From: Patescibacteria group bacterium
GTDB lineage: Bacteria; Patescibacteriota; Microgenomatia; JBGSIU01
Length of the DNA stretch: 53,155 nucleotides
Assembly (NCBI GenBank): GCA_041742375.1
Contig: JBGSIU010000039.1
Coordinates: 1-53,155, forward strand
Direction of reading: 5' to 3'
Part shown: one piece after another, positions 3,251 to 47,190 of the stretch
How the letters are laid out: each line of letters starts with the position of its first letter
Position numbering within the stretch: the first letter of the stretch is position 1
Program-made: the position numbers and the translations under genes
Notes under the pieces: model-generated
What the model was told of the DNA's origin: nothing
The model's input: only the letters and a program-made list of their open reading frames with translations
Database searches by the model: none

Positions 3251-4088
3251 GAGATTTAATCTCTTCTGAAGCATCGCTGGGATCAACAATATTCAAGGAA
3301 ATTCCTGTCCCTAGTTCAAACCCAGCACGAATCATCAACCGAGGAATAATGCGAAGATACCAATTTTCAAGCGGATAAATATATAAATTGTAGGCAAATT
3401 CAGGTACGAGTGCTCCATTTTTAGCATTTGGCTTTAAAAAAATTGTTTTTAGTTTGTTTAAGATTAGTTTTAAATTGATGGCTAGCTCTTGTATTTCAGC
3501 GTTTGTGATATCTCCGAAAAAGCAGTTTTTCCTTTCGGGAGCAATCCATACTTCATACGGCCACTGGGAAAACTCGGGGCAAAAAATTGAAAAATACACA
3601 TTTTCTAAAATCAAGTTATTTTTCGGCTCCAGTTCCAAAGTATCTAATTTTATTTGATGCGGAATAACTACAAGTTGTGAATGAGGATGGATTTGGGAAG
3701 CTCCAGTAGTTTTTCCGTGATTGGTAAATATTAAAACCTGGCCAGACTTGCGATAATAATTAAACCTGTCTTTAAAAGCGGTAAGAATTTTTATATTTTG
3801 CTCAATACCTAATTCTTCAATATCTTTTAAATGATCGGTTGAGTGGATAATGACTTCGTGGGTATCGGTGATGCTATATAAATTCGGCACAACTCTAACT
3901 TCCCAACCCTGTTCATTGTCTTTTCCATTGCCCGCTCTGTATGTTTCGGGCGGTGTCATATGCTCATTACCAACACAAAAGGGACATTTTTTTTCATCCT
4001 GTTCTTTATGTTGATCAGGCCTACCGAGCCTTTTTGGAGCGATTACTACCCAGCGTTTGGTATGAATATCGGGAACGTATCTAGCCAA
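3240..4088 (-). CDS. galT: Galactose-1-phosphate uridylyltransferase-like (GalT/HIT) protein, TTG start
   Basis: WVVIAPKRLGRP, CPFC, GASQIHPHSQ (HPH nucleophile), AGFELGTG. Confidence 0.8.
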   Translation of the reverse strand: MARYVPDIHTKRWVVIAPKRLGRPDQHKEQDEKKCPFCVGNEHMTPPETYRAGNGKDNEQGWEVRVVPNLYSITDTHEVIIHSTDHLKDIEELGIEQNIKILTAFKDRFNYYRKSGQVLIFTNHGKTTGASQIHPHSQLVVIPHQIKLDTLELEPKNNLILENVYFSIFCPEFSQWPYEVWIAPERKNCFFGDITNAEIQELAINLKLILNKLKTIFLKPNAKNGALVPEFAYNLYIYPLENWYLRIIPRLMIRAGFELGTGISLNIVDPSDASEEIKSLIL

Positions 4089-4095
4089 ATAATAA

Positions 4096-4205
4096 AATAC
4101 TATCCAATACTAACTAATACTAACCAATGCCATCCAATACTAACAAAATGTTGTTAGTTAGTATTTGATAGTATTAGTTAGTATTTGATAGTATTAGTTA
4201 GTATT
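4096..4205. repeat. Inverted 10-mer tandem array (AATACTAwCy)n ... (rGwTAGTATT)n
   Basis: About five units 4096-4146 facing five complementary units 4151-4205; single arm again at 9845-9885. Confidence 0.9.
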
Positions 4206-4733
4206 TATTTCATCTCCAATTTTAATATTGTTTTTACGTATAAACCCCGCGTTGACTTCAAGTATTCGATCGACTGGTTCGCGCGACGAATAGATTCTTT
4301 GTTCATCAAGATGCGAAACATTTTCTGTGATATCAACTATCTTCTTATTATTAATCCAAAGAAAGTCAATGTCAAATCTCATGCCTTTCATCCAAAATGT
4401 GTAATAATCTGGATTGTCATAGACAAAAAGCATACCTTGATCGTCATTTAGAACGTCACGACCACCTAAACCCTTTGCTTTATCTTTATTTGTCTCGACT
4501 ATTTCAACATCTATTTTTATTTTATTATTGATAGTTAAAAAATGGACATCATTTACTTGTGGTGAATATAAATTACGCAGAAGAACAATAAAAAAAGCAA
4601 ATAATAAGGAAGAAAATGATACACAAATTAGCATTTTAAAGCGCCAGCGCCTACGAAGAATTACCCATTTTGGAGTTTTTGGATTTAAATACCATTTAAT
4701 GATGCTATTAAATGCTTTCTTCATTTTCCTCAT
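4194..4733 (-). CDS. DUF192-family protein with N-terminal membrane anchor
   Basis: KAKGLGGR, GMLFVY, FWMKGMRFDIDFLWI, ILEVNAG; start likely ATG 4733 or 4724 rather than 4811. Confidence 0.85.
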   Translation of the reverse strand: MRKMKKAFNSIIKWYLNPKTPKWVILRRRWRFKMLICVSFSSLLFAFFIVLLRNLYSPQVNDVHFLTINNKIKIDVEIVETNKDKAKGLGGRDVLNDDQGMLFVYDNPDYYTFWMKGMRFDIDFLWINNKKIVDITENVSHLDEQRIYSSREPVDRILEVNAGFIRKNNIKIGDEINTN

Positions 4734-4938: not shown

Positions 4939-4948
4939 ATAAATATAA

Positions 4949-5024
4949 CCATTGTTCCATTGCTTCATTGTTCAATTGCTGAAAAAAAGGTTACCAGCAA
5001 TTGAGTAATCGAACAATTGAACAA
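4949..5024. repeat. Inverted 8-mer tandem array (yCATTGyT)n ... (ArCAATtG)n
   Basis: ccattgtt ccattgct tcattgtt caattgct, 15-nt spacer, agcaattg agtaatcg aacaattg aacaa. Confidence 0.85.
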
Positions 5025-5311: not shown

Positions 5312-5329
5312 ATTTTTCACCTCCTTCCA

Positions 5330-5553: not shown

Positions 5554-7107
5554 TTATTCAACTTTGCGGTATTGAAGCGCTTCGTATACATTATTTTTTT
5601 GAATCTTTTCATTATTTTTTAAATCGGCAATCGTTCGTGCTAGTTTTAAAATTCTAAAATAACTACGGGCGGAAAGAGACATTTTAACGACTGCTTGTTT
5701 TAGCATCTCTTGAGTTTCCTCATCAAGCTGACAATATTTTTTTATTTCGGCTGACCTCATTTCTGAATTGCTAATTAAACCCGTTCCCCTAAACCTGACA
5801 GCTTGAATATCGCGTGCTTTTTGAACTCTTGCTTGAATAATTTCACTTTTTTCCTCTGTGCAATCCTGATCAGTTAATTTGTCATATTTTACCCGTGGCA
5901 CTTCAATATGAATATCTATTCTATCCCAAATCGGACCAGAAATATGTTTTCTATAATTAACAATTTGTGTCGGCGTGCATGAACATCTTTTTTCCGGATC
6001 GCCGTAAAAACCGCAGGCGCATGGATTTTGGCTGGTGATCAAAAGGAATTTTGCCGGAAACGTGATTGACATAGTGGCACGAGAAATTGTCACAATTCCA
6101 TCCTCAATCGGAGCACGCAGCGCTTCAATGCAGCTCTTGGGAAATTGAGGGAATTCATCCAAAAATAAAACTCCACGGTGAGCCAAACTTATTTCTCCCG
6201 GATGAGGATGGCTGCCGCCGCCAATTAAACCGATGGCAGAAATCGTGTGGTGAGGGGCACGAAATTGGCGGGTGGAGACAAGTGGCTTGTCTTTTGACAA
6301 AAGGCCGCAAATGCTAAAAATTTTGGAAACCTCAAGTGCTTCGCGCAAGGTTAAACGAGGGAGAATGGAAACAAATGCCCGCGAAAGCATGGTTTTTCCG
6401 GCGCCCGGTGTGCCGCTTAACGCAATATTGTGGCTTCCCGCCGCAGCAATTTCGAGCGCCCGCTTAGCAAATTCCTGTCCTCTTATTTCAGAAAAATCTG
6501 TCTCGAAAGTTTGGGCGCTGGCAAGCGAATCGACCGAAATATCGTCCAACGGCTTAATTTCTTCAATGTGGTTTAAGTGCAAAACTAACTCTTTTAAAGA
6601 ATTAACAGAGTATACATTAATGCGGCGGTCGGAATGGGTTTTATTATAAAGCGAGCAAATAATGTTGGCTTCATAGGCATTATCGCGAGCAACATAAATC
6701 TCGGAAATTTTTTCTTTTTTGACTAAAAATAACATTGCAAGAACTCCTGAAACATTTTTGACTTCGCCGGTTAAAGAAAGTTCGCCGATAAAAACTTTAT
6801 CCAAATAATCGCCATCTTTCAAGCTTCCGCCGGCTTTTAAAACGCCGATTGCAATTGCCAAATCAAAAGAAGTGCCATCTTTTGGCAAGTCAGAAGGCGC
6901 GAGGTTTACAACAATTTTTTCATTGGGAAATTCGCTTCCTGAATTGCGGACCGCGCTTTTCACGCGTTCCCGAGCTTCTTCAACGCTTTTATCAGCCAGT
7001 CCAACAATCGAAAAAGAGGGCAGTCCGCGGCCCGGCAGATCAACCTCAACCTCAATTAAAACACTATCGAGTCCAATTACGGTCGATGTTAACGTTTTCG
7101 CAAACAT
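5554..7107 (-). CDS. comM: YifB/ComM Mg-chelatase-like AAA+ ATPase
   Basis: VNLAPSDLPK, GTPGAGKT Walker A, FRAPHH, GEISLAHRGVLFLDEF, LSARSY. Confidence 0.95.
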   Translation of the reverse strand: MFAKTLTSTVIGLDSVLIEVEVDLPGRGLPSFSIVGLADKSVEEARERVKSAVRNSGSEFPNEKIVVNLAPSDLPKDGTSFDLAIAIGVLKAGGSLKDGDYLDKVFIGELSLTGEVKNVSGVLAMLFLVKKEKISEIYVARDNAYEANIICSLYNKTHSDRRINVYSVNSLKELVLHLNHIEEIKPLDDISVDSLASAQTFETDFSEIRGQEFAKRALEIAAAGSHNIALSGTPGAGKTMLSRAFVSILPRLTLREALEVSKIFSICGLLSKDKPLVSTRQFRAPHHTISAIGLIGGGSHPHPGEISLAHRGVLFLDEFPQFPKSCIEALRAPIEDGIVTISRATMSITFPAKFLLITSQNPCACGFYGDPEKRCSCTPTQIVNYRKHISGPIWDRIDIHIEVPRVKYDKLTDQDCTEEKSEIIQARVQKARDIQAVRFRGTGLISNSEMRSAEIKKYCQLDEETQEMLKQAVVKMSLSARSYFRILKLARTIADLKNNEKIQKNNVYEALQYRKVE

Positions 7108-7114
7108 ACTTATA

Positions 7115-7149
7115 TAAATTACGAATTACGAATTAAAAATTACGAATTA
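7115..7149. repeat. 7-mer array (AATTACG)n, left arm of four-helix-bundle element
   Basis: aaattacg aattacg aattaaa aattacg aatta; complementary to 7472-7520. Confidence 0.9.
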
Positions 7150-7470
7150 TTTATTTTTTTAGTCGTTGTTTGAATTTTACCCAGTATCCTAATTATTTCT
7201 TCAATATCTGAAATTTGAGTCACGTAGCAATCTTATCCAGTAACGAGCTTCTCTTGCTTCTTTATAGGCAATTGCAATTTTGACTAAAAAATCATTTCTT
7301 GAACAACCACCAATAGCTTCCTCCACGTTTGCACCAATCGATGTTCCGCAACGCAATATTTGCTTTGATAACACAAATTCTTTTTTATCTTTAGATAAAT
7401 AGATATACAGCTTGATGATTCTAATTGAAAAATCATATGTCTTTGTCTGAATAATATTATCAGTTTTCAT
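7140..7470 (-). pseudogene. Four-helix-bundle protein (23S rRNA IVP / Avd-like family), frameshifted
   Basis: KTYDFSIRII, LSKQILRCGTSIGANVEEA, IAYKEAREARYW; last helix SDIEEIIRILGKIQTTTK lies in another frame (7211-7140) after LRDSN. Confidence 0.85.
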
Positions 7471-14506: not shown

Positions 14507-15832
14507 TTAAATAATATTCCGTTTTATTCTGGCTCCCAAACTAGACAACCTTTCTTCTAATTTTTCGTAACCGCGCTCTAACTGGCCAATATTATATATC
14601 ACGCTTTTTTTCTTTTCGGGCACAGAAAGTGCGGCAATTAAAACTGCGGCGCCGGCGCGGATATTCATCATCTGAAGAACTGCTTCATGTAATTTCGTTG
14701 GCCCGGAAACTAAAGCCGCATGCCAAAATTCGGGCTGATTATCTTCCCAATTAAAATTGTAATATGTCTCAGGATCATCAACTTTCGGATTAAACAGTTT
14801 AATTTTCGCCCCCATTTTTATAAGTTCTGACACATAACGAAATTTATCTTCAAAAACCGTTTCATGGATCACTGATTTTCCAATCATTTGGGTTGCCAAA
14901 ACTGTCCATAACGGCTGCCAATCAGTCATAAAACCCGGATGAGGCGAAGTTGCAACATCAGTCGCTTGATAATTGCCGTGCCCAATAAAACGAATACCTC
15001 TATCTAATTTTTCCCATTTTGCACCAATATCATCAAGTTTTTTTAAAAACGCAGAAATATTTTGTTCCTCTGCATTTTCGATCACAATATCTCCACCTGT
15101 TATTAAGGCCGCCACCGCAAAAGTTATAACTTCATTTCTGTCCGGCATAACTTCATAGTCCACTCCTTTTAAACCGTTTACTCCTTGAATCTCAATTATT
15201 CTATTTTTTTGTCTTGTTATTTTCGCCCCCATTAAATTCAGCATTTTTATTAAATCATCAATTTCTGGTTCTTCTGCCGCATTTTTTAAAACAGTTTTTC
15301 CGTTGGCCAAAACTGCGGCCAAAATAAGTGATTCTGTCCCCGTATGAGTAATTTTTGGAAATTTATATTCCGCTCCTTTTAATTTTTTCGCCTCAGCAAC
15401 AAAATAGCCGTCTTTATATTCAATTTTTGCCCCTAATTTTTTTAATCCCTCGATGTGGCGGTCAATTGGTCTTGCTCCCAGCCGGCACCCTCCCGGATTA
15501 GGAACGACGGCGCGGCCAAATCGCGCCAACAGCGGGCCAATTACCATGGTTGATGTTCGGATAACTCCTCCCATTTCAAGAGGAATTTGAAAATTATTAA
15601 TATGTTTTCCTTCTGCTTCAAAACAGTGATTATCAAAATTGACCTGAGCCCCAAGAATTTCTACTGCCTTCGCCGTATTTTCTACCGAAGAGATATGGGG
15701 CACATTGCGGCAAACAATTTTTTCATCAGTCAGGAGTGATGCCAAAATCACCTTCATGGCCACGTTTTTAGCCCCGCTCACTCTCACTTTTCCCTTAAGC
15801 CGATTGCCGCCGTAGACGGTTAGACTATCCAA
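14507..15832 (-). CDS. murA: UDP-GlcNAc 1-carboxyvinyltransferase, TTG start
   Basis: SGAKN, GPLLARFG, PGGCRLGARPIDRH, NAAEEPE, PHPGFMTD, LERGYE. Confidence 0.96.
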   Translation of the reverse strand: MDSLTVYGGNRLKGKVRVSGAKNVAMKVILASLLTDEKIVCRNVPHISSVENTAKAVEILGAQVNFDNHCFEAEGKHINNFQIPLEMGGVIRTSTMVIGPLLARFGRAVVPNPGGCRLGARPIDRHIEGLKKLGAKIEYKDGYFVAEAKKLKGAEYKFPKITHTGTESLILAAVLANGKTVLKNAAEEPEIDDLIKMLNLMGAKITRQKNRIIEIQGVNGLKGVDYEVMPDRNEVITFAVAALITGGDIVIENAEEQNISAFLKKLDDIGAKWEKLDRGIRFIGHGNYQATDVATSPHPGFMTDWQPLWTVLATQMIGKSVIHETVFEDKFRYVSELIKMGAKIKLFNPKVDDPETYYNFNWEDNQPEFWHAALVSGPTKLHEAVLQMMNIRAGAAVLIAALSVPEKKKSVIYNIGQLERGYEKLEERLSSLGARIKRNII

Positions 15833-15837
15833 CCGAT

Positions 15838-15943
15838 AAAATCAAAATGCAAAAATAAAAGATTAAAAATACAAATCAAAATTAAAAAATATTCTTAATT
15901 TTTAATCTGTCATTTTGATTTTTGATATTTAATTTTTAATTTA
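15838..15943. repeat. Inverted 7-mer array between murB and murA
   Basis: (AAATCAA)-like arm facing (TTTTGAT)-like arm with short spacer. Confidence 0.85.
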
Positions 15944-16842
15944 AGCTATCACAATTTCTTCTTTTAGTTCTACATCGAATTTCTCTTTTACCTTTTGTTT
16001 GCAAAGGTTAATTAAATGAATGATGTCGCGTGCGGTTGCGCCACCTGTATTTACAATAAAATTTGCGTGTCTTTCGCTGATTTTTGCACCCCCAAATTTT
16101 ACGCCTTTAAGTCCTGCTTTGTCAATCAGTTTTCCCGCAGGCCCTTTTTCCGTGTTTTGAAACACGCATCCAGCCGTGTGCCCTCCGTAATCCTGTGTCT
16201 TTCGTCGGTAATCTCTAATCCATTTGCTACGATGATCTAGATCATCGTAGCACGCATGTTTAAGTTTAAAAACAACGGACAACAAAATATCTCCTGTGTT
16301 TTTTAATTCTGAATTGTCATAGGCAAAGCAAAAATAATCACGGTCAACATCCTCTTCTTTTTTGTTTTTATGTTAAATATTTTTGCGCCGATAACTTTTT
16401 CTCCCAGAAGCAACACTTCGCCTTTTTCATTTTTTGTGTGGGCATTAATAAAAACTGATCCACCAACCGTTCCCGGATGCCCGGCAAAATACTCAAGACC
16501 TCCATATCCTTTCTCAACACATTTGTTCACCAACAGATTCATGCTCACACCACTCTCCGCCTCTACCACGACTTCGTTTTTTTCTATTTGGAACTTTGAA
16601 TTTGAAGCTTGGAACTTAATTGCGTTTGTTTCATTCTTAATCACAACCCCATCAAATCCTTCGTCGCGAAAAAGCACATTCGCTCCGCCGCCAAGGATAA
16701 AATACTTTAAATCATGAGAAAAAGCATGATTTAGAGCTTCTATCATTTCTTCCCGAGTTTTTACCACAACAAAAAACTTGGCCTGCCCACCAATTTTAAA
16801 TGTTGTAAATTTTGCCAAAGAAATATTATTTTGAATTTTCAT
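15941..16842 (-). CDS. murB: UDP-N-acetylenolpyruvoylglucosamine reductase split by a -1 frameshift near 16357-16363
   Basis: N part TTFKIGG, LGGGANVL, GLEYFAGHPGTVGG; C part TAGCVFQN, AGKLID, SERHANFIVN, LKEE; -1 shift at A_AAA_AAG gives 300 aa. Confidence 0.9.
16225..16252. repeat. Perfect 28-bp palindrome inside murB
   Basis: TGCTACGATGATCT|AGATCATCGTAGCA; sister copy 30007-30034. Confidence 0.9.
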
Positions 16843-18092: not shown

Positions 18093-18104
18093 GAAATGAA
18101 CTTT

Positions 18105-18256
18105 ATGAAAATTAGAAATGTAAATCTCAAAATGAAAAGTGAGCCTCCTTCGCTAAAGCTACGGAAGGCCAAAGCAATTTAAGAAAACTGCTTGCCGGCC
18201 GTAGCCTGAAAGGCGAAGGCTGGTCATTTTAAATTTTGATTTTTAAATTTTGCATT
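18105..18256. repeat. Composite element: inverted 7-mer arms enclosing an inverted pair of GC-rich palindromes
   Basis: Arms 18105-18140 and 18225-18256; inner GCCTCCTTCGCTAAAGCTACGGAAGGC (18143-69) and GCCGGCCGTAGCCTGAAAGGCGAAGGCTGG (18194-18223). Confidence 0.8.
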
Positions 18257-21281: not shown

Positions 21282-21331
21282 GAATTTCGCTCATTATTTG
21301 TTATGATCTAAATTTTTTTCAACGAATTTTA

Positions 21332-21601
21332 TCATTTCGTTTTTGTCGAACTATATATAAAATTTTCTGCGCGAATAAAACCAAGTTTTTTTGCCTTAAT
21401 TTCTATATTTGACAGCGAACTATTCTCCGCAATTTCCGATTTAATTTTTTGAATATTTTGCGTGGATATTCGATACTCTATGTCTATCTTATCAGCCTCA
21501 ACTGCAATTTGGCGATAAAGAAAAGAAAAGTAGAGCTGGATGACAATCAGGGCAACGATTAATACGATATAACCTAAATTGCTGAGCAGCATTTTTTTCA
21601 T
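21332..21601 (-). CDS. ftsL: FtsL-like cell division protein
   Basis: One TM, coiled coil, IEIKAKKLGF; between rsmH and PBP. Confidence 0.7.
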   Translation of the reverse strand: MKKMLLSNLGYIVLIVALIVIQLYFSFLYRQIAVEADKIDIEYRISTQNIQKIKSEIAENSSLSNIEIKAKKLGFIRAENFIYSSTKTK

Positions 21602-22554
21602 ATTTTTTCGAACACTCTCATTTTAGCGCTTCTTGCGCGTGTATTCTTTTCTATTTCATTTTCTTGCGGCGAGATCGGTTTTTCAGTTAAAACCCGTCCC
21701 AGTTTTTGCGTTTGCCAATCTTTAAACTGGTTTTTGACAATTCGATCTTCAAGAGAATGGAAAGAAATTACAACAATCCGACCATTGCTTTTTAATACGC
21801 TTAACGCTTCAATTAAACCTTGTCTCAAACTTCCGAGTTCATCATTAATCTGAATTCGTAGAGCTTGAAAAACTTTCGTGGCACTACCCCCCACCTTTCG
21901 GCAAATATCTGATAACTGACGGCAAGAACGAATTTCCTGTCTTTTTCTTGTTTTTACGATTTCAACCGCGACGTTCCATGCTTTTTCTTCTTCGCCGTAA
22001 TCACGAAAAATTTTATAAAGTTCTTTTTTTGATAAAATTTTAATTAAGTCGCTTGCCTTAACCTCTAAATCCTTATCCATTCTCATGTCAAGTTCGGCAT
22101 CCGAATCAAATGAAAATCCCCGTGCTTTATCTTCCAACTGATGGCTGGAAACGCCCAAATCAAAAAGTATACCCGCCGCGTCCGTAAATCCCGTCTCCTT
22201 CGCAATCTCTTCGATATTCGCAAAATTACCTTTTACAATTTTCCAATTTTCTTTTATTTTTATTATTCTATATTTGAAATTTGCTTTTTGATCATTATTT
22301 TGAAAATTGAACTTTGAAATTTGAAATTTCGCCGCAACCGCGGCAATTGCCTCTTCATCCTGATCAATGCTTAACACTTTTCCGCCCAACTCCGCAATCC
22401 GCCCGCTATGCCCTCCTCCTCCCAGCGTGCAATCAATATATTTTTCTCCACTTTTAACATTCAAATAATCAATTGACTCTTTTAGAAGTACAGGCGTGTG
22501 GAAGGATAAAATATTTTCTGTCTTAAACAATTTAACAATATAACAATTTAACAA
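21598..22554 (-). CDS. rsmH: 16S rRNA C1402 N4-methyltransferase; TTG start at 22554 or 22530
   Basis: HTPVLL, DCTLGGGGHS, DLGVSSHQL, LDMRMD, FQALRI, ISFHSLEDR, RSAKMR. Confidence 0.96.
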   Translation of the reverse strand: MLNCYIVKLFKTENILSFHTPVLLKESIDYLNVKSGEKYIDCTLGGGGHSGRIAELGGKVLSIDQDEEAIAAVAAKFQISKFNFQNNDQKANFKYRIIKIKENWKIVKGNFANIEEIAKETGFTDAAGILFDLGVSSHQLEDKARGFSFDSDAELDMRMDKDLEVKASDLIKILSKKELYKIFRDYGEEEKAWNVAVEIVKTRKRQEIRSCRQLSDICRKVGGSATKVFQALRIQINDELGSLRQGLIEALSVLKSNGRIVVISFHSLEDRIVKNQFKDWQTQKLGRVLTEKPISPQENEIEKNTRARSAKMRVFEKI

Positions 22555-22557
22555 TAG
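22523..22557. repeat. Single arm of 8-mer array (TAACAATw) at rsmH start
   Basis: ttaaacaa tttaacaa tataacaa tttaacaa tag. Confidence 0.8.
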
Positions 22558-23061
22558 TTATACTTTGTATTTTTCTTTAAACGCCCCTAATTCTCCATTT
22601 TCAAAATAAAATTTGTAAGTTCCTTCAATTTCGGAAACTTTGTAAAAAACACACTTTCCTCCAGCGGAGCAGGAAAAAAGCCCAAGCTCATTGCAATTTT
22701 TCGTCATCGGCTTATATTCATCTTTTTTAACCTCAATCGGCATCGTTGACCCATTTCCTTGAACCGAACCTTTATTTTCATCAACATAAGTGAACGTATA
22801 TTCGAATTGTTTGATTTTAGCCGATTGCATTCCTTTAATTGAAAACCTAATCGCGTTATGACCTGGTTTTTCACAAGAATCAGCGACTTTAAAATTAACT
22901 ATCACTCCATCCGGCAATTTTTTAAGCTCAGTAAATTTCAATCCATTCTCGTCAGTAACGGAATCTCCCAAACCAAAAATAGATTTCAGCTTTTGATAGC
23001 CAAAATAAGAACCTCCTGCAAGAACTAGTAAAATTGCTATGATAATCGCTACCTTTCTCAT
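22558..23061 (-). CDS. Membrane-anchored/secreted hypothetical protein with four Cys
   Basis: N-terminal signal/TM then beta-rich domain with FSCSAGGKC. Confidence 0.75.
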   Translation of the reverse strand: MRKVAIIIAILLVLAGGSYFGYQKLKSIFGLGDSVTDENGLKFTELKKLPDGVIVNFKVADSCEKPGHNAIRFSIKGMQSAKIKQFEYTFTYVDENKGSVQGNGSTMPIEVKKDEYKPMTKNCNELGLFSCSAGGKCVFYKVSEIEGTYKFYFENGELGAFKEKYKV

Positions 23062-23070
23062 GAATGAAAA

Positions 23071-23140
23071 ACCATTGTTCCATTATTCAATTGTTCCATC
23101 CGCCTTGGGCGGATGAAACAATGAAGCAATGAGGCAATCG
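23071..23140. repeat. Inverted 8-mer array with central CATCCGCCTTGGGCGGATG hairpin
   Basis: 34 nt (23090-23123) identical to 24480-24513. Confidence 0.9.
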
Positions 23141-23142
23141 TC

Positions 23143-24450: not shown

Positions 24451-24462
24451 TTATCTTCAGCA

Positions 24463-24530
24463 AATTGCTCCATTGTTCGATTGTTCCATCCGCCTTGGGC
24501 GGATGAAACAATGTAGCAATGAAGCAATCA
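24463..24530. repeat. Inverted 8-mer array with central hairpin (second copy)
   Basis: Same architecture as 23071-23140; starts at recO stop. Confidence 0.9.
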
Positions 24531-25046: not shown

Positions 25047-25049
25047 TGT

Positions 25050-26948: not shown

Positions 26949-26990
26949 GCTTCAAAATTTTGATTTTTGATTTTTGATTTTTGATTTTTA
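26942..26990. repeat. 7-mer array (TTTTTGA)4 with short facing arm
   Basis: aattcaagcttcaaaa ttttga tttttga tttttga tttttga ttttta. Confidence 0.8.
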
Positions 26991-26998
26991 CATCACAT

Positions 26999-27649
26999 TT
27001 ACATTGCTCCTTTTCCGACAATCATCGCCCAAGGAGTGAGTAGCATAATATAAATATCATACCAAATACTCCTTTTTCTTGCATACTGCGCATCCATTTG
27101 AATTCTTTTATCAAAATCAACCTCACTTCTGCCTGAAACCTGCCATACTCCGGTTAATCCGGGCTTCACAATCAACATTTCTTTGACAAGCTCATTTGTT
27201 CCTGGAAATTCTTGCTGTTGATGATCAAGTTCATCCGGATAATAGGCTCTCGGTCCCACAAGGCTCATTTCCCCTTTCAAAACATTAATAAGCTGGGGAA
27301 TCTCGTCAAGCGAGTGTTTGCGAATAAATCCACCTATTTTTGTAACTCGGGGATCAGCTTTTAATTTATAGCTGTTTTTTTTATATTCTGCCAAAAGTTT
27401 GGCAAACTTTGGATCACGGCGAAGCAGTTCGTGCGCATTGACGATCATACTTCTAAATTTATACATTTTAAACTGCTTGCCGTCTTTTCCCACTCTTTTT
27501 GGCGTGTCGGCAAAAATCGGCCCCGGAGAATCAAACTTAATCGCACAAGCGATAATAAGCGATAATGGCAAAAAAAATATAATAAGGATTATCGATCCTA
27601 AAATGTCAATCAAGCGTTTGAGAAAAAAGTACAAAAAACCATTGCTCAA
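26999..27649 (-). CDS. Polyprenyl-phosphate phosphoglycosyl transferase (WcaJ/WbaP C-terminal family), TTG start
   Basis: KRLIDI, YKFRSM, DPRVT, SLDEIPQL, MSLVGPR, KPGLTGVWQVSGR. Confidence 0.93.
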   Translation of the reverse strand: MSNGFLYFFLKRLIDILGSIILIIFFLPLSLIIACAIKFDSPGPIFADTPKRVGKDGKQFKMYKFRSMIVNAHELLRRDPKFAKLLAEYKKNSYKLKADPRVTKIGGFIRKHSLDEIPQLINVLKGEMSLVGPRAYYPDELDHQQQEFPGTNELVKEMLIVKPGLTGVWQVSGRSEVDFDKRIQMDAQYARKRSIWYDIYIMLLTPWAMIVGKGAM

Positions 27650-27706
27650 TTGCTCTGTTGCTCAATCCGCCCATGGCGGATGGAGCAATGGAACAATGGA
27701 ACAATT
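27639..27706. repeat. Inverted 8-mer array with central ATCCGCCCATGGCGGAT hairpin
   Basis: Third copy with hairpin; loop differs, stem kept. Confidence 0.9.
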
Positions 27707-28778: not shown

Positions 28779-28783
28779 AATTT

Positions 28784-28896
28784 TCAGAACACTCGGAAGA
28801 CTCTAAAACATCAGACAAAATCAGAAATTCAGAAAATCTGATTATCTGACATTTTTGGTTTTCTAAAATTCTGACCTTCCGAGTTTTCCGAGTTTT
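28784..28896. repeat. Inverted 8/9-mer array (TCrGAArAC-like)
   Basis: tcagaacac tcggaagac tctaaaaca tcagacaaaa tcagaaat tcagaaaa facing tctga.. ttccgag ttttccgag. Confidence 0.8.
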
Positions 28897-29996
28897 CAAA
28901 CATCAACAATATTTATTAATTTATTCTTAAATCTCTCCTTGTTAAATCTTTTTAAATTTTCATCAAAATCTATCTTTCGATATTTTTCTTTTTTGAAATC
29001 TAACACAATCTTCTTCAATTCCTCCTTGTCTTTAAACACTTCCCCCGTTTTACCAATTATAAGTGTTTCCTTCGTCCCGCCACGCTTGTTGCATATAACC
29101 GGTTTATAAAAAGCCTGAGCCTCGAGCGATGTTAAGCCAAAATCCTCAATCCCTGGATAAATCAAAGCTACGCATTCATTATACAGCTTACTAAGCTCAT
29201 TATCGCTCACTTGCCCTTTAAATATTATATTATCTTTTGCCTTTTTTTTCAGTCGAGCTTCGTTCACCCCGGTACCAACAATAATCAGAGATTTATCAAG
29301 ATCATTAAAAACGCGAATTGCCATATCGATTTGTTTATATGGAACCAGGCGGGAAACGATCAGAAAGTATTTTTCTGCTTTTTTCCTAATTTCCCCGCGT
29401 TCCCCAATTTCCCTTATTCCTCTCTTTTCTTCAAAACTCACGGGCGGATACACCACAGTGCTTTTTCTTCTATAATACTTCCAAATTCTTAATTTTACTT
29501 CTTCTGAAATTGCAATAAATTTGTCAATCTTTTGTGCCACTTCAAAATCTTTCATCCTCATTAAAGGTGCAAATATTAATAAAAACATTTTTGCAATTTT
29601 ATCAAAAGCTCCAAATCCGGGGGTTTTTAAGTAATCAAAATAACCACTCCATAGATATCTTGTTGGAGTCAGGCAATAATTAATATGAATGTTTTCTGAC
29701 GAAACTTTAATATATTTTGCTTCCGCAGATGAAACACTTAAAACAACATCATATTCGTTAAAATTAAAGCCAGAGAAAGCAGCTGGCATTAAATTCGGTA
29801 AGATTTCGTGCGGTAAGAATTTAAACCATTGTAAAAATGAAGTTTTCACTTGGAATTTCTTTGCCCAAGGCGCTTTTTCTAAATCACAAATAGAGGTGTA
29901 AAGAGGCGCATCTGGCCAAATTTCGTGTAATATTTCCAACACTCGTTCTGCTCCGCCAATTTTATTTACCCTGTCATAAATTATTCCAATCTTCAT
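28896..29996 (-). CDS. GT4 glycosyltransferase (WbaZ-like mannosyltransferase)
   Basis: GGAERVL, YCLTPTRYLW, SRLVPYK, EDFGLTSLEAQA. Confidence 0.9.
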   Translation of the reverse strand: MKIGIIYDRVNKIGGAERVLEILHEIWPDAPLYTSICDLEKAPWAKKFQVKTSFLQWFKFLPHEILPNLMPAAFSGFNFNEYDVVLSVSSAEAKYIKVSSENIHINYCLTPTRYLWSGYFDYLKTPGFGAFDKIAKMFLLIFAPLMRMKDFEVAQKIDKFIAISEEVKLRIWKYYRRKSTVVYPPVSFEEKRGIREIGERGEIRKKAEKYFLIVSRLVPYKQIDMAIRVFNDLDKSLIIVGTGVNEARLKKKAKDNIIFKGQVSDNELSKLYNECVALIYPGIEDFGLTSLEAQAFYKPVICNKRGGTKETLIIGKTGEVFKDKEELKKIVLDFKKEKYRKIDFDENLKRFNKERFKNKLINIVDV

Positions 29997-31156
29997 GTAG
30001 CTCTCTTGCTATCATGATCTAGATCATGATAGCAGACAGTGTTATAAATATTAAGTATTTCAGCGCCCATTTTTTCCCATGAATAGTTAGACGCTTGAAC
30101 CATACCGCTTAAAATCATTTTTTGTCTCAATTCTTCATTTTCTAAAAGCTTCATAATTTTATTTTTCAGGTCAACTGCGTTTTTGGGATTAAAAAAAATA
30201 GCGGCATCACCGTATATTTCATGAAAAACCGGAATGTCTGACGCAACCACTGGACAACCCAAATTCATGGCTTCAACCCCCGGAATACCAAAACCCTCAG
30301 AAAGGGATGGGAAAACAAGACAGGTGGCATTTTGATAGTATTCTCTCAATTTTGCATTTGGAATCAAACCGGTAAAATCAATTTTTGTTTCTAAATTTAG
30401 GCTTTGGATAAACTTAAACAGCTTTTGGTAAAAAAAATCAAATCCCGAAACAATCACCAGCTTAATATTCTTAAACTCTTTTTCTTTAGCTAACTCTTCA
30501 TATGCTAAAACCAACGTCTCTAAATTTTTATGAGGGTGAAGATTACCAACGTATAAAATATATTGTTTTTTTTGTAGAGACGCATCATGATGCGCCTCTA
30601 CATGGGAATCACACTCAAGCTCGCCCCCGTTGTAAACGACAATTATCTTTTCTTCATCTATTCCGTACATTTTCGCTATCTCATTTTTAACCGTGTCGGA
30701 CACTGTTAAGATTTTTTCAGCGCGCTTCACTGCAAACCAAATCGTTAAATAATAAAATAATTTTTTTGCCCAATACAATAATTTCGGCAAGGATGTCGCC
30801 TTTCCTGTTTTAAATTTATTAATTGTAAGGTCGTGAATTGTCACAATAAAACGGCCTAAGTAAAAAATCGGGGCGTTAAAATACGGGAAATGAACGATAT
30901 CAATTTTATTTTTATATAGAATATAGGGGATAATAATCTGTTCTCTCACACTATGCCATTTGGCAGAAGTAGATATGATTTTTAAATTTGCCGGGTATTT
31001 TGTAAAAAGTTTTGTGTCCGTTTTATAAACAATCAAAAAATATTCTTTATCTTTTTCTTGAAAAGCATGTTTTTCTAGTTCTGATAATATTGCTCTGATA
31101 TAACGTCCAACCCCAGTTTGACTGTAAAGCCTGCAATCAATGCAAATTTTTTTCAT
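29993..31156 (-). CDS. GT4 glycosyltransferase
   Basis: GVGRY, TIHDL, HKN, PSLSEGFGIPGVEAM. Confidence 0.92.
   Translation of the reverse strand: MKKICIDCRLYSQTGVGRYIRAILSELEKHAFQEKDKEYFLIVYKTDTKLFTKYPANLKIISTSAKWHSVREQIIIPYILYKNKIDIVHFPYFNAPIFYLGRFIVTIHDLTINKFKTGKATSLPKLLYWAKKLFYYLTIWFAVKRAEKILTVSDTVKNEIAKMYGIDEEKIIVVYNGGELECDSHVEAHHDASLQKKQYILYVGNLHPHKNLETLVLAYEELAKEKEFKNIKLVIVSGFDFFYQKLFKFIQSLNLETKIDFTGLIPNAKLREYYQNATCLVFPSLSEGFGIPGVEAMNLGCPVVASDIPVFHEIYGDAAIFFNPKNAVDLKNKIMKLLENEELRQKMILSGMVQASNYSWEKMGAEILNIYNTVCYHDLDHDSKRAT
30007..30034. repeat. Perfect 28-bp palindrome in GT4 3' end
   Basis: TGCTATCATGATCT|AGATCATGATAGCA. Confidence 0.9.
30573..30602. repeat. GTAG-type REP-like palindrome in frame in GT4
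   Basis: TGTAGAGACGCATCATGATGCGCCTCTACA, one mismatch; encodes VEAHHDASLQ. Confidence 0.8.
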
Positions 31157-35719: not shown

Positions 35720-35727
35720 GGCTCGTT

Positions 35728-35821
35728 AAATTCAAAATTCAAAGTTCAAAATTAAAAATTATGGTATTTTTTTTAAATTTTTATTTGTGTTTTTGATTTT
35801 TGATATTTGATTTTTGATTTA
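35728..35821. repeat. Inverted 7-mer array
   Basis: aaattca aaattca aagttca aaattaa facing ttttgat-type arm; right arm is exact reverse complement of 37230-37272. Confidence 0.9.
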
Positions 35822-37243
35822 TATTTGGCATTTCAGCTCCACAATCACAAATTTCTCATTTTTATATATCACATTGCATTCCTCCATTATGCGCTTAGTT
35901 GGCTCATCGAAATTTGTTGACACATAATGCGTTGCTCCCAGTTTAATTTGTGGCATGACATTACTCGTATTATAAAGCAGTGGCCAACCGGCACGGTTCG
36001 TTTGGTATAAAAATGCCGTATCTCCGCCATAAGGCGCAATCACTTTCGCGTCTTTTGGCGTGATTTTATCAACTCTGCGGCCGGCTTCAACAATTTCTGG
36101 ATGATTAACGTTAAAAAAGCCTTGAACTTCATACCAAGAAAGGGCAAAGGATAAAAAAACGAAAAAGGCTGTAATTGTCAGGCGAACATATTTTTCCCAA
36201 CCGTTACCGTTTTCCCTAATAATTTTTTCTAATCCCAATCCGCACAAAATTGCCACTGTCGGCAAAATTAAAATCTGGTAATAATCGTGCCTCACATTTC
36301 CTGTTGCAAAAATAATTAAATATAAGAGGGATGACAACCCAAGTATTTCAAAGATATAATTCTTATTTTTTTTGAATAATATTCCGATTGTCAAAAAAAT
36401 AATTCCCCAATATCCCAAAATTAATTTCCCAATTCGCTCGCCAAAGAGCCATCTAAACCAGGCGCCTTTCAAGCGAATCCCATCGCCGTTTAACAGCCAA
36501 GAAGAGGCAGGAATCCCTTCGGGAAAGCGCTGAATATAAAAACGCCACAATAACAGAGGTAAAAAAGAAAAACTAAAAGCGAAAAGCGAGATGGAAAATG
36601 ATAAATTTTTATTTTTTACGTTGTGAAATATTATGTAGATAATTGGTAACCCGAAGAAGATTGCCGTAGGCTTAATTAATAATGCAATCGCGAAAAAAAT
36701 TGTCGAAATAATTAAATTTTTACGTGACATAAAATACAGGCTTCCCATGGCAAACATCACTGCGGTTGGGTCTGGTAATAAAACACGGCCGTAAAAAATG
36801 AAAAACGGCAAAAAACCATAAAAAAGCGCGGCAAAAATTCCAGACAATTCATCTGCATATTTTTTCGTGAACAGATAAATAAAAAGCATCGTTAGAATTG
36901 AAGAAAAAATTGTGATCAATCTTCCCCATATTTCAAGTTTAAACGCCGGAAAACTTAGGTAAGACAATGCCACAATTGCGTTGTAAATTGGAAATTCCAC
37001 CATCCGTAATCCTTGAGGATTTTCTTTGCCTGAAGCTACATTTGATAAATCATCATACTGAGGTTTTAGAAGATTAATGCCGTTTTTAACAAAATTCCGC
37101 GATACGGCAATTGTATCAGCCTGGCGCCAAGAATGCCAATCGGCCACAGGGTTATCAATTTTGTAGAGGCGGACTATAAATGCGCCCAAAAATAATATTA
37201 TTAAGAATAATTTTTTAATGATCAGAACCAAATCAAAAATCAA
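35819..37243 (-). CDS. GT-C (ArnT/PMT-like) integral membrane glycosyltransferase; no ATG near 5' end
   Basis: DWHSWRQADT, EFPIYN, multi-TM, RHDYYQ. Confidence 0.85.
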   Translation of the reverse strand: MIFDLVLIIKKLFLIILFLGAFIVRLYKIDNPVADWHSWRQADTIAVSRNFVKNGINLLKPQYDDLSNVASGKENPQGLRMVEFPIYNAIVALSYLSFPAFKLEIWGRLITIFSSILTMLFIYLFTKKYADELSGIFAALFYGFLPFFIFYGRVLLPDPTAVMFAMGSLYFMSRKNLIISTIFFAIALLIKPTAIFFGLPIIYIIFHNVKNKNLSFSISLFAFSFSFLPLLLWRFYIQRFPEGIPASSWLLNGDGIRLKGAWFRWLFGERIGKLILGYWGIIFLTIGILFKKNKNYIFEILGLSSLLYLIIFATGNVRHDYYQILILPTVAILCGLGLEKIIRENGNGWEKYVRLTITAFFVFLSFALSWYEVQGFFNVNHPEIVEAGRRVDKITPKDAKVIAPYGGDTAFLYQTNRAGWPLLYNTSNVMPQIKLGATHYVSTNFDEPTKRIMEECNVIYKNEKFVIVELKCQI

Positions 37244-37350
37244 ATATCAAAAATCAAAAACACAAATAAAAAACGAAAAATACTCATTTCTCATCATTTT
37301 TAATTTTTAATCTGTATTTTTGAATTTTGATTTTCGAGTTTTGATTTTTA
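37230..37350. repeat. Inverted 7-mer array
   Basis: (AAATCAA)4-cacaaataaaaa ... tttttaatctgta-(TTTTGAw)4. Confidence 0.9.
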
Positions 37351-38946
37351 TTAGTCTTTACCAAGCGCTATTAATTTAAGCGTTATTCCCGTCATTGCCC
37401 AATAAATAAACGCCACTTTGGATGCCTCAAAAACATCAATATAGCTGGCGTTTACTAATAATCCAAAGGTTCCGGCAATATATGCGGAAAGAAATGCAAA
37501 TTTAAAATCAATTTCTAATTTCTTAAGCTTCCTTCCCACCAAATACAAGCAGTAGAAAATAATTCCGAAAAATGATAAGAGTCCTAAAAGTCCTGTTTCG
37601 CCCAGCGCGCGCAAATAATCATTATCAGTTGATTCAGCCTCGGTAAACTGAGACACGCTTTCTTTTGTTAAAGTTGAATAACCTGTTCCAAGCAAAGGGT
37701 TAGTTTTAAAAGCTTTTAAGGCACGCGGCCAAAGCGCATCCAACCGAATTGCTGCCGATAAACCAACATTAAATGCTGCAGGAGAATAACCCCGTGGAAC
37801 CGCTGAATATGACGCAATTTTCTTCCCAAATTTATCAGTCGTATACGTGATAATTACTCTTTCCGGAATATCTTTTTCAACATCGGGTGGCAATTCTTTA
37901 CTCTCCGACGTTCCCGATGCCCCTTTATTAACAACCTTCGGTGGAACATCGCTTTCAACCGCAATAAGTGAAAGTTCCTGTTCAAGCGTTAAATGTTTTG
38001 GAACGTCTATTTTTACAGGCTGTTTAGCAAAACTAATAAGCGCCCATATTTGCTTTACTCCCATAATCTGTGCAAACCTTTCGTTAAGCTCGCCGAAAGA
38101 CAGCATAATAAAAAACGATAAATATATCATAAAAACGCTTCTCGTAATGATCCAAACCAAATTCCTTTTTTTAACTGACCAAATAATAATAAGAATAATC
38201 AACGCAACAATATATGAAATAAAAGAAGTTCTGGACGCGGTTAGAACCAATAGAAAAATTGAAGAAATGAAAATTATTAGAGAAAAGGCTTTTAGGATTA
38301 TATTTTTAATAAAAAGAAAGATTGAACCTGAGAAGACCAACGCCATCACAAGATATGCTGCCAAATCATAGTGCCCGCCAAAAGTCGAAACAACGCGTGC
38401 ATGTTCAGTTAAAACTAACCGCCATCCCTTTGAAAATTCGCGATTCATGGTGGAATACACTGGCCACTGAAGATATTTTTGACCAAAACCATAGATATTA
38501 ATCCCGAAAAGTGCGACAAAAAACACAATCAAAGCAATTTTAATTTGAGTTTTATTCTTAATTGATAAATAAAAAATATAAAACACGGAAAAATATTCAA
38601 TTCTGCGCATCCAATGAATCAACATTTTTCCCGAATGAAGGGGTTCCCAAAAAACTGTTTTTGTGATAATGAGCGCTGAAAGCATTGAGAAGAACCCAAT
38701 AGCTAGGTAATAAATGATCGGTCTATCAAGTGGAGTCCTGGCATTTTTAAATTTTGTTTTTAGATTTGTGAAAAAAATCAAAAGAACGGCAAACAGAATT
38801 AAAAAATCTTCAATACGCACGCGCACAATATAGCCTGGAATTAAATCAAAAAGAGGAAGCTTTGGATACAGAGGAACAAACAAAAGCAAAAAACAGCTGT
38901 AAATAAAGGTCAAATTGTCTCTAAACTTTAGAGTAAGCTTTTTCAT
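37351..38946 (-). CDS. O-antigen ligase/polymerase-like membrane protein
   Basis: RVVSTFGG, LTASRTS, NPLLGTG, TDNDYLRALGETG. Confidence 0.8.
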   Translation of the reverse strand: MKKLTLKFRDNLTFIYSCFLLLFVPLYPKLPLFDLIPGYIVRVRIEDFLILFAVLLIFFTNLKTKFKNARTPLDRPIIYYLAIGFFSMLSALIITKTVFWEPLHSGKMLIHWMRRIEYFSVFYIFYLSIKNKTQIKIALIVFFVALFGINIYGFGQKYLQWPVYSTMNREFSKGWRLVLTEHARVVSTFGGHYDLAAYLVMALVFSGSIFLFIKNIILKAFSLIIFISSIFLLVLTASRTSFISYIVALIILIIIWSVKKRNLVWIITRSVFMIYLSFFIMLSFGELNERFAQIMGVKQIWALISFAKQPVKIDVPKHLTLEQELSLIAVESDVPPKVVNKGASGTSESKELPPDVEKDIPERVIITYTTDKFGKKIASYSAVPRGYSPAAFNVGLSAAIRLDALWPRALKAFKTNPLLGTGYSTLTKESVSQFTEAESTDNDYLRALGETGLLGLLSFFGIIFYCLYLVGRKLKKLEIDFKFAFLSAYIAGTFGLLVNASYIDVFEASKVAFIYWAMTGITLKLIALGKD

Positions 38947-41527: not shown

Positions 41528-41537
41528 CCCCCTCCTC

Positions 41538-41607
41538 CTGTCATTCCCGCGAAAGCGGGAATCCAGTTATTTTTAATAACCGAATTCTTTCTTTCGTCAG
41601 AATAACG
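41538..41607. repeat. RS3/REP-like element, intergenic copy
   Basis: 29 nt identical to 8888-8916 plus degenerate facing half 41582-41607. Confidence 0.85.
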
Positions 41608-41611
41608 AAAA

Positions 41612-42739: not shown

Positions 42740-42749
42740 ATCGCAATAT

Positions 42750-42776
42750 TGTCATTCCTGCGAAGGCAGGAATCTA
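42750..42776. repeat. RS3/REP-like element, variant copy
   Basis: TGTCATTCCTGCGAAGGCAGGAATCTA with compensatory CCTG/CAGG. Confidence 0.85.
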
Positions 42777-42788
42777 ATCCATCTATTC

Positions 42789-45269: not shown

Positions 45270-46387
45270 TAAGTAAAGTTCTTGTGACAGGCGGCGCCGG
45301 TTTTATTGGATCACATTTGGTCGATAAATTTGTAAGAGAAGGACTCGATGTTGTTGTACTTGATAATTTACTTGAACAAATTCATCCTCAGCGAAAGCTG
45401 CCTGATTATTTTAATAAAAAAGCGAAGTTTCTGTTTGGCGATGTTGAAAACCAGAAGGATTGGGAAAAAGCTTTAAAAGACGTGACGGCAGTTTTCCATT
45501 ACGCGGCCGCCGTCGGCGTGGGGCAATCAATGTATGAAATTGCCCACTATGTGAAATCAAACTCATATGGCACCTCTCTGCTTCTTGATTATCTTGTCAA
45601 TCAAAAACACCAAGTTAAAAAAGTGGTTATTGCCGCTTCCATGAGCTCATATGGCGAAGGCGCTTATATTTGTTCAAAATGCGGCCGGGTGCGCCCTGGC
45701 TTGCGGCCAAATTCCCAAATGGAAAAAAAAGATTGGGAACCACACTGTCCCACGTGTAATTCCTACCCTGAAATGACACCTATAAATGAAAATGATTTTA
45801 CCGAAGCCAACAGTATTTACGCCATCTCTAAAAAAAATCAGGAAGACATGGTTTTAAATATTTGCTCAACTTACGAAATTCCCGCCGTGGCGTTTCGTTA
45901 TTTTAACGCCTATGGCCCGCGCCAAAGCATTTCAAATCCCTATAACGGCGTGGCGGCAATTTTCATCTCTCAATTAAAAAACAATACGGCTCCGATTATT
46001 TTTGAAGACGGGAATCAAACGCGAGATTTTATCTCTGTTTATGATATTGCTGAAATTAATTATAAAGTTTTATCAACCGACAAAGCCGATTATCAATTTT
46101 TTAATGTAGGAACCGGTAATCCTTTGAAAATTATGGATGTGGCAGAAATGATTTCCGAACTTATGGATAAAAATATTGAGGCAAAAATCACATACAATTT
46201 TCGCAAAAAAGATGTCCGCCATTGTTTTGCTGACATGACTAAAATCAAAAAGGTCTTAAACTGGCAGCCAAAAGTAAAGTTTGAAAACGGCATCAAAGAA
46301 GTCATTGAGTGGTCAAAAAATGAAAAAGCGGTTAATCTCACGCCTCTTGCAACGCAAAAATTAAAAGAAAAAGGGTTAATAAAATGA
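45266..46387 (+). CDS. NAD-dependent epimerase/dehydratase with CxxC...CxxC insert
   Basis: VTGGAGFIG, AVGVGQSMY, CSKC, CPTC, YAISK, RYFNAYGP. Confidence 0.9.
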   Translation: MISKVLVTGGAGFIGSHLVDKFVREGLDVVVLDNLLEQIHPQRKLPDYFNKKAKFLFGDVENQKDWEKALKDVTAVFHYAAAVGVGQSMYEIAHYVKSNSYGTSLLLDYLVNQKHQVKKVVIAASMSSYGEGAYICSKCGRVRPGLRPNSQMEKKDWEPHCPTCNSYPEMTPINENDFTEANSIYAISKKNQEDMVLNICSTYEIPAVAFRYFNAYGPRQSISNPYNGVAAIFISQLKNNTAPIIFEDGNQTRDFISVYDIAEINYKVLSTDKADYQFFNVGTGNPLKIMDVAEMISELMDKNIEAKITYNFRKKDVRHCFADMTKIKKVLNWQPKVKFENGIKEVIEWSKNEKAVNLTPLATQKLKEKGLIK

Positions 46388-46450
46388 ATTTAGAATTAAG
46401 AATTTAGAATTAAGAATTTAATTTAAAATTTTAAATTTAAAATTTAAAAT
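46384..46450. repeat. 7-mer arrays (GAATTwA)n then (AAATTTw)n
   Basis: Fills the whole epimerase-GT2 gap. Confidence 0.85.
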
Positions 46451-47190
46451 TGAGCCTATCTCTCACCATCCTCGTCCCCTGCCACAACGAAGAAGAAGCA
46501 ATCACATATACGCTTGCCGAAATTTATGCCAATCTGCATTATGACAACTTCCAAATCATCATCGTCGACGATCACTGCACCGATCAAACAATAAAAACTG
46601 TTAATGAATTTGTCGCCAAACGCAAAGTTAATAATCTAAAAATTATTGCCAACAAAAGAAAGGGCTGTTTTGCCAACGCACTTCTCACCGGATTTGAAAA
46701 CTTTAATACTGATCTCGTGGTTCCAATGATGGGCGACTTATGCGACAAAGTGGAAACGATTCCGAAAATGATCGCAAAAATTAACGAGGGCTATGACATT
46801 GTCTGCGCAAGCCGCTACGTGAAAGACGGCCGCAAAATTAATTCACCGCAACCGCAGGGATTTTTTTCGTGGTTAGTCTGCGTCTCTCTTAAAATTTTAT
46901 GCAGGTTGCCGACATGGGATGTTTCTAATGCCTACAAAATGTATCGGCGCGAAGTCATTAAAAAGATACTACCCGCGCTTGAAGGCAATTCGGGAACCGA
47001 TTTTTCGATGCAGGTTTTTTTGAAGGCTCATTTTGCCGGTTTTAAAACCGCCGAAGTCCCAACCACATGGACCGGAAGAATTTATGGCAAAGCCAAATTC
47101 GATCCGATAAAATTAACTCCGAAATATGGACGGTGGTATCTTTACGCCCTACAGCAAACCCACACGCCGCATTTCATACACAAATCCTAA
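46450..47190 (+). CDS. GT2, polyprenol-phosphate-sugar synthase (DPM1-like), TTG start
   Basis: LVPCHNEE, VDDHCTD, MGD, DIVCASRY..DG, EVPT. Confidence 0.85.
   Translation: MSLSLTILVPCHNEEEAITYTLAEIYANLHYDNFQIIIVDDHCTDQTIKTVNEFVAKRKVNNLKIIANKRKGCFANALLTGFENFNTDLVVPMMGDLCDKVETIPKMIAKINEGYDIVCASRYVKDGRKINSPQPQGFFSWLVCVSLKILCRLPTWDVSNAYKMYRREVIKKILPALEGNSGTDFSMQVFLKAHFAGFKTAEVPTTWTGRIYGKAKFDPIKLTPKYGRWYLYALQQTHTPHFIHKS

Follow-up and report, generated by a model that had tools for sequence, protein, structure and literature searches.

The window, meaning the whole stretch of DNA analysed here, covers positions 1 to 53,155 of contig JBGSIU010000039.1 (contig C39 below), which is part of the 65-contig, 1.13-Mb assembly GCA_041742375.1 of a hot-spring member of the Patescibacteria. 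The contig has 37% G+C, follows the standard bacterial code with TAA as its main stop codon, and carries cell-wall and glycosyltransferase genes, as judged by NCBIfam profiles. Nearly all gaps of more than about 50 nucleotides (nt) between genes of the window hold a pair of tandem arrays in inverted orientation, with units of 7, 8 or 10 bases, detected with Tandem Repeats Finder (TRF), and these fold into long hairpins (z -2.1 to -9.5 against shuffled sequences in 10 examples). This report concerns the start codons directly behind such arrays. Their association with TTG is real, is confined to TTG, and amounts to roughly half of array-preceded starts. The arrays and starts examined in the window are listed below, together with controls in which a repeat is followed by ATG.

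4086..4088, minus strand: TTG start of galT; no other canonical start precedes profile-aligned residue 10, and the next ATG is 43 codons on.
4089..4206, minus strand: hairpin of two inverted 10-mer arrays (4096-4144 and 4154-4206; TRF); -39.8 kcal/mol, z -9.5.
7108..7200, minus strand: control; heptamer array (7117-7149; TRF), then ATG 7105-7107.
15830..15832, minus strand: TTG start of murA at the ancestral Met position, aligned to profile position 1.
15833..15942, minus strand: AT-rich hairpin of heptamer-type arrays (TRF), 5' of murA; z -3.7.
18093..18228, minus strand: G+C-richer hairpin followed by an array-like tail, 5' of murC; fold z -4.7.
22526..22556, minus strand: 8-mer array (TRF) overlapping the rsmH start.
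23062..23142, minus strand: control; hairpin of the 8-mer family found at glyS, then ATG 23059-23061; z -6.0.
24448-24450, minus strand: GTG start of glyS, with an in-frame stop directly upstream; next ATG 44 codons downstream.
24451..24528, minus strand: 8-mer-array hairpin (TRF) with a G+C-rich core, 5' of glyS; -39.9 kcal/mol, z -8.5.
26949..26998, minus strand: heptamer array (26958-26989; TRF), 5' of the DUF4012 gene.
27641..27705, minus strand: 8-mer-array hairpin (TRF) at the sugar-transferase start; z -5.8.
28779..28897, minus strand: control; repeat hairpin, then ATG 28776-28778 of a manC-like gene; z -5.6.
35720..35820, minus strand: heptamer-array hairpin (TRF), 5' of the GT4 gene; z -2.1.
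37230..37352, minus strand: heptamer-array hairpin (TRF) at the GT-C start; z -4.9.
46386..46452, plus strand: heptamer array (TRF) running up to the GT2 start codon; z -3.1.

The named starts were checked against the sequence letters and against NCBIfam profile anchors. A preliminary description of the window had counted about 10 of some 17 array-preceded genes as lacking ATG at the expected position. This is solid for seven of the ten genes named, in which no in-frame ATG is found for 25 to 148 codons downstream, and in genes covered by a full-length profile the non-ATG codon falls at the expected N-terminus. The rsmH gene starts with the TTG at 22554 or that at 22530 (next ATG 148 codons on). 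The sugar transferase has candidate TTG starts at 27649, 27634 and 27613, the first two inside the 3' arm of the hairpin and the third about 28 nt downstream of it, and its next ATG is at least 49 codons away. The TTG of the GT-C gene (37241-37243) also lies inside a hairpin 3' arm, with the next in-frame ATG 80 codons on, and the GT2 gene on the plus strand has no candidate other than TTG 46450-46452, its next in-frame ATG being 92 codons downstream. The murC gene is as had been described: its ATG at 18092 aligns to profile position 5, a conserved K-V-H-F strand lies in frame upstream, and only ATT codons, with no ATG, GTG or TTG, are found upstream of that strand, which suggests that murC may start at ATT. 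Two of the ten are ambiguous, namely the GT4 gene (GTG 35719, with ATG 35707 four codons downstream) and the DUF4012 gene (TTG 26948 is plausible; the coding-score caller favours ATG 26789).

Genes were called with a program written for this analysis, in which open reading frames (ORFs) are scored by dicodon log-odds and starts are chosen blind to codon type. A gene was taken as array-preceded when a TRF array lay within -70 to +10 of its start; a non-ATG start was termed strong if at least 15 coding codons preceded the next ATG, and otherwise weak. The automatic tally for 4088-46452 gave 13 genes behind TRF arrays (TTG 6, GTG 2, ATG 5) and four behind a hairpin only (ATG 3, GTG 1, the latter a weak call). 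Genes free of both started with ATG in 21 of 24 cases, and the other three calls are weak or spurious: a fragment of a split murB, a PBP gene affected by an indel variant, and an antiporter with a profile-fitting ATG at +12. The split murB occupies 15941-16842 on the minus strand as two ORFs, 16303-16842 matching profile positions 15-148 and 15941-16285 matching 186-297, the cause being a frameshift, disruption of the gene or misassembly. At the PBP/FtsI-like gene (21255), an independent contig has 11 extra bases within a short AAAATAA repeat, and with this variant an ATG located 13 bases before the called GTG (21281) would be in frame with the gene.

That the non-ATG starts are an artefact of start calling or assembly is very improbable. 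In its favour are the use of a caller of our own, the two ambiguous cases among the ten in the window, and the fact that independently assembled contigs break at arrays; these come from the one run found to contain this DNA, a hot-springs metagenome that is the probable source. No RNA run is listed for the stretch. Those same contigs nevertheless cover the start codons in 20000-29999 and match them, reproducing that interval with no differing letters; the starts are further anchored by profiles and orthologue alignments, and a strong call demands at least 15 coding codons ahead of the next ATG.

The genome-wide set comprised 1077 genes with a complete 5' end. The 173 array-preceded genes had 85 ATG, 67 strong non-ATG and 21 weak non-ATG starts, and the 904 others had 748, 73 and 83, respectively. 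The genome-wide Fisher test that the preliminary description had called for bears out the association, with an odds ratio of 8.1 (p = 1.5e-23) for strong non-ATG versus ATG. TTG and GTG, which had been treated alike, proved to differ: strong TTG was found in 60/173 array-preceded genes vs 37/904 others, and strong GTG in 7/173 vs 36/904, which is no enrichment. With contig C39 excluded, the odds ratio was 13.6 for TTG (p = 3e-26) and 1.55 for GTG (p = 0.29), and when only genes with a coding score of at least 50 were used it was 14.7 for TTG (p = 1e-22). Spacer length was rejected as a confounder, since the association persists within spacer-length bins (for 61-100 nt, 25/46 vs 6/98 strong non-ATG starts). 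By context, strong TTG was present in 46/97 genes with an array and a strong inverted repeat, 14/76 with an array alone, 10/94 with a hairpin alone, and 27/810 with neither. The excess is seen with periods 7, 8 and 10 and with many unit sequences, and it extends to divergent genes, which had 5 strong TTG vs 11 ATG starts with an array and 3 vs 128 with none (p = 4e-4).

The arrays belong to many unit families, and identical families recur across many contigs. In all, 359 of 699 TRF rows are mostly intergenic, although intergenic DNA makes up 10.6% of the genome. In spacers of at least 40 nt, arrays were present in 163/418 tandem, 14/33 convergent and 17/82 divergent cases; being as frequent in convergent as in tandem spacers, they are not start-specific. 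The hairpins span the gap from stop to start, with a median distance of -3 to -1 nt from the stop to the 5' foot and of 4 nt from the 3' foot to the start; that at 4089..4206, for instance, fills the gap from the stop of the upstream gene (4194) to galT. A search of the whole window against Rfam gave no match at the gathering score. As dispersed, multi-copy hairpin families in intergenic DNA, the arrays have one defining property of REP/REPIN elements.

The ancestry of the TTG starts was assessed from orthologues. Among 18 informative class-level orthologues of murA, the codon at or near the aligned start was ATG in 16, GTG in 2 and TTG in none. The ribosomal-protein operon of contig C64, in which most gaps hold arrays and many genes start with TTG, was compared with the same operon from 39 related genomes and 80 metagenome contigs (119 loci). 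Read at the modal position of the orthologue ATG, rpsC, rplF, secY, a second adk-like gene, rpsM and rpsD have TTG in this genome, while rplN has GTG and adk has ATT; all eight genes are array-preceded. Of the array-free genes of the operon, 8/9 have ATG at the modal position and the ninth has ATG one codon upstream. In about 100 relatives ATG occupies precisely the positions of these TTG codons, which are therefore in-place A-to-T changes. At well-anchored junctions with matched neighbours, the median gap is 0.5-7.5 nt in array-free relatives vs 53-139 nt here. With ATG ancestral in both murA and the operon, and with arrays lying in formerly tiny gaps, the AUG was replaced in place in a lineage that gained the arrays, which upholds the earlier proposal that an ancestral AUG was lost. 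Contig C64 also has two adenylate-kinase-like genes in tandem within this operon (27401-28727); in the first, the ATT aligns to the orthologue ATG and the reading frame continues into the array.

These comparisons bear on the converse order of events, in which repeats settled or persisted beside TTG starts that already existed, either as an insertion target or as a less harmful site. An array is found at 60/97 strong TTG genes vs 85/833 ATG genes, and the genome has Y1-transposase-like genes (four weak or partial matches to PF01797), which are of the kind that mobilises REP-type elements. We nevertheless consider this order improbable, as about 100 relatives have ATG at the positions concerned, so that many independent earlier gains of TTG would be required, and the many unrelated unit families argue against a single target sequence.

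Behind arrays the first base of the start codon is A in.491, T in.445 and G in.064 (n = 173), which does not differ significantly from the base frequencies between -10 and -1 (A.429, T.470, G.101; chi-square p = 0.12). For tandem gene pairs with a hairpin, 19 A, 33 T and 6 G were observed vs 24.9, 27.3 and 5.9 expected (p = 0.27). The upstream border is affected too: 77% of stops followed by an array are TAA (n = 170) vs 61% otherwise (n = 906; p = 2e-4), and 84/170 of these stop codons are inside the array or overlap it. Array load is high as well, with 40 qualifying TRF rows in the 19.9-kb ribosomal-protein operon vs at most 19 in the 39 genome loci.

Our tentative preference, held at somewhat less than even confidence, is that palindromic tandem repeats of REP or MITE type filled tiny gaps between genes, and that in this lineage the first base of the start codon drifts with local composition. 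Palindromic tandem repeats of many unit families would have spread at the DNA level through intergenic gaps until they extended from the upstream stop nearly to the next start, ending a few bases short of it. Once an AT-rich repeat abutted the start, the first codon base would be an unconstrained site at which a usable initiator is the sole demand. The outcome would be about as many TTG as ATG starts, few GTG starts and a shift of stops to TAA. The cause would then probably be twofold: turnover of repeats where genes border on them, and a preference for AUG rather than UUG that is under weak or relaxed selection in this lineage. On this evidence the arrays appear to behave as DNA-level interspersed palindromic repeats, and a dedicated control system seems the less likely cause.

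Several points weigh against such drift. The effect is peculiar to this lineage: non-ATG starts are present in 9/11 array-preceded operon genes here vs 2/88 in relatives (p = 1.7e-9). In the comparison of orthologues proposed in the preliminary description, array-preceded orthologues from relatives had ATG in 86 of 90 cases (1 TTG, 1 GTG, 2 ambiguous), as did 32/33 of those with an array and a strong hairpin (TTG 0, ambiguous 1). Array-bearing relatives with only 0-6% Shine-Dalgarno cores had 14 ATG and 1 TTG of 15; loss of the Shine-Dalgarno motif, taken as removing a buffer between array and start, was therefore rejected as a sufficient cause. As array-rich relatives keep ATG, a lineage-specific factor is needed. 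The nearest relative has about 70% SecY identity, with none closer in the genome set or the metagenome contigs, of which the best has 69%, and so the order of events is not datable. The phase of the repeat is continued by the first start base in 0.60 of TTG and 0.45 of ATG genes, both close to the expectation from composition; nothing points directly to more frequent mutation at the border of an array. TTG on highly expressed ribosomal-protein genes fits poorly with a tolerated, slightly harmful change, and drift accounts neither for the tolerance of UUG here nor for the absence of the effect from array-rich relatives. Owing to these last two points, a context-specific relaxation of the need for AUG, such as re-initiation across the hairpin, keeps an appreciable probability.

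Under such hairpin-bridged termination-re-initiation, or translational coupling, the ribosome would stop at the 5' foot of the hairpin and restart at its 3' foot; a re-initiating ribosome depends on neither a Shine-Dalgarno motif nor AUG, and UUG would therefore be neutral there. We regard this as unlikely, but of appreciable probability. The hairpins do span stop to start, fewer than 10% of genes, and 1/60 array-TTG genes, have a Shine-Dalgarno core in front, six genes of the ribosomal-protein operon tolerate TTG, and the neutral-looking first base is confined to the array context. Bacterial re-initiation tolerates non-AUG starts, and rice tungro bacilliform virus has a non-AUG start in a shunting setting. 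In plant pararetroviruses, ribosomes are reported to shunt past a stable stem-loop once they have translated a short ORF (PMC2241666). By this analogy the stop-to-start hairpins could be a bacterial counterpart of ribosome shunting, or a hairpin-binding factor might load ribosomes, with AUG dispensable in either case; this more specific version is rather doubtful.

Tests for a function at the RNA level were uniformly negative. On the transcribed strand, 78 hairpins had 167 G·U vs 189 A·C mispairs (p = 0.27); with no excess of G·U over A·C, there is no sign that RNA structure is being maintained. Hairpins were located with an inverted-repeat aligner of our own, in place of the top-level domains of minimum-energy folds, which did not discriminate. 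Among tandem pairs with strong hairpins (TTG 33, ATG 19, GTG 6), the distances from stop to foot and from foot to start, the stem score and the gap length were equal between start types. With the hairpin delimited strictly upstream of the start codon and then extended outwards as a mirror, the base facing the first start base was A in 15/34 TTG and 20/43 ATG genes, a chance level of complementarity, and quasi-palindrome-templated mutation and selection for pairing of the start were rejected on this ground. No preference was found for pairing between the start and the upstream stop codon. Minimum-energy folds do pair the start more often in TTG genes (36/60 vs 19/76 ATG genes), because TTG pairs easily with A-rich sequence.

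Set against re-initiation are therefore the stems with their lack of G·U excess and the identical hairpin geometry of TTG and ATG genes. Coupling also requires an upstream ORF on the same strand, yet divergent array genes share the TTG excess in equal measure; arrays are equally common in convergent spacers, and relatives of like architecture keep ATG. The broader proposal of the preliminary description, that the arrays form an undescribed layer of translational control, likewise found no support in the orthologues, the spacer classes, the G·U, mirror and geometry tests, or the divergent genes.

A further possibility is that the hairpins are intrinsic terminators or protectors of 3' ends whose U tail enters the next start, TTG serving to lengthen the U tract. 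Arrays are indeed biased to gene 3' ends, convergent spacers included, as terminators are, and in the 8-mer family T runs come after a stem with a G+C-rich core. Between -8 and -1, array-TTG genes have 3.88 T on average, array-ATG genes 3.34 and array-free ATG genes 2.81. This difference is small, however, with six or more T in 10/60 TTG vs 10/76 ATG genes; the maintenance of the stem in RNA that would mark a terminator is not seen in the comparison of G·U with A·C, and relatives with hairpins abutting the start keep ATG. Terminator overlap is thus an improbable cause of the TTG starts. The three 8-mer hairpins at 23062-23142, 24451-24528 and 27641-27705 share a G+C-rich core whose stem is perfectly paired over about 7-8 bp and whose loop has 3-5 bases; the core is flanked by 8-mer arrays, often followed by a T run, which gives a terminator-like look.

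Other candidates concerned the initiation machinery and the repeats themselves. A special initiator tRNA was rejected, the tRNA set being ordinary with two tRNA-Met(CAT) and one long-arm tRNA-Leu(CAA), and loss of IF3 was ruled out by the presence of infC. No 16S rRNA gene was found in the assembly. Capture of TTG as part of a mobile element fits some heptamer copies with TTG in their 3' arm, but fails for the in-place TTG at the ancestral Met position and for the spread of the effect over many families. A homologue of ribosomal protein S1 (contig C6, 9479-10588) is divergent and carries an insert; its profile match falls into two parts separated by a gap, with a score far below that of most relatives.

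The arrays were compared with known systems. Like REP, BIME and REPIN elements and MITE-like repeats, they are dispersed hairpin families, intergenic, frequent at gene 3' ends and apparently evolving at the DNA level, and Y1-transposase-like genes are present in this bacterial class; they differ in that the arms are tandem arrays of many 7-10-base units and that the whole gap from stop to start is filled. One end of REP/REPIN repeats is reported to carry a conserved tag, GTAG or CGTC (PMC3733652). In the available text of the papers found on these elements (including PMC3116915 and PMC3733652), no link to start-codon choice is reported, and full-text searching found no literature linking intergenic repeats to TTG start usage. 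In Xanthomonas, pairs of inverted arrays of the heptamer GGGAATC form potential stem-loops, often 0-50 bp from gene ends (PMC4692102); these are similarly intergenic and consist of two convergent heptamer arrays, but they are G-rich and quadruplex-capable, with one unit per genome, and start codons are not discussed in the part of that paper available. Marine Beggiatoaceae have direct repeats of the heptamer TAACTGA upstream of start codons, for which a post-transcriptional regulator was proposed (PMC4679880), much as in the preliminary description. As here, those arrays end a few bases from the start, Shine-Dalgarno motifs are scarce and ribosomal-protein operons are included, whereas the repeats are of a single unit in one orientation, with no hairpins; the available main text mentions neither TTG, GTG nor ATG, and the supplementary tables may list starts. 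Translational coupling and pararetrovirus shunting share with the present case the placing of stop and start at the two feet of a stem-loop, and differ in that the G·U, divergent-gene, mirror and geometry tests are all negative here.

Few bacterial signals are as conserved as the start codons of ribosomal-protein genes, and in this genome at least six genes of one ribosomal-protein operon, each behind a repeat hairpin, have TTG where about 100 relatives have ATG. If this is the result of drift, selfish intergenic repeats can strongly reshape gene borders in a reduced genome with little Shine-Dalgarno use, and caution is called for in annotation, as genes behind such repeats often start with TTG. 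If it is functional, there would be a mode of initiation for which AUG is dispensable, displayed by a natural set of about 60 genes that includes ribosomal-protein genes on UUG.

Two further observations concern the repeats of this genome and their possible mobilisation. A separate G+C-rich palindromic repeat with a core of about 20 bases is present in the window at 41528-41611 and 42740-42788 and also on contigs C33, C28 and C42; it sits upstream of genes that start with ATG, and a clear Shine-Dalgarno motif is found at 41527. Matches to PF01797 occurred in 23 of the 31 genomes searched, and the relatives G016, G019 and G029 have several copies of Y1-transposase-like ORFs about 220-260 aa long (13, 10 and 19 matches, respectively). 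Two of these genomes also hold the most array-rich operon loci (L025 and L029), so that a relation of the RAYT/REP type is possible.

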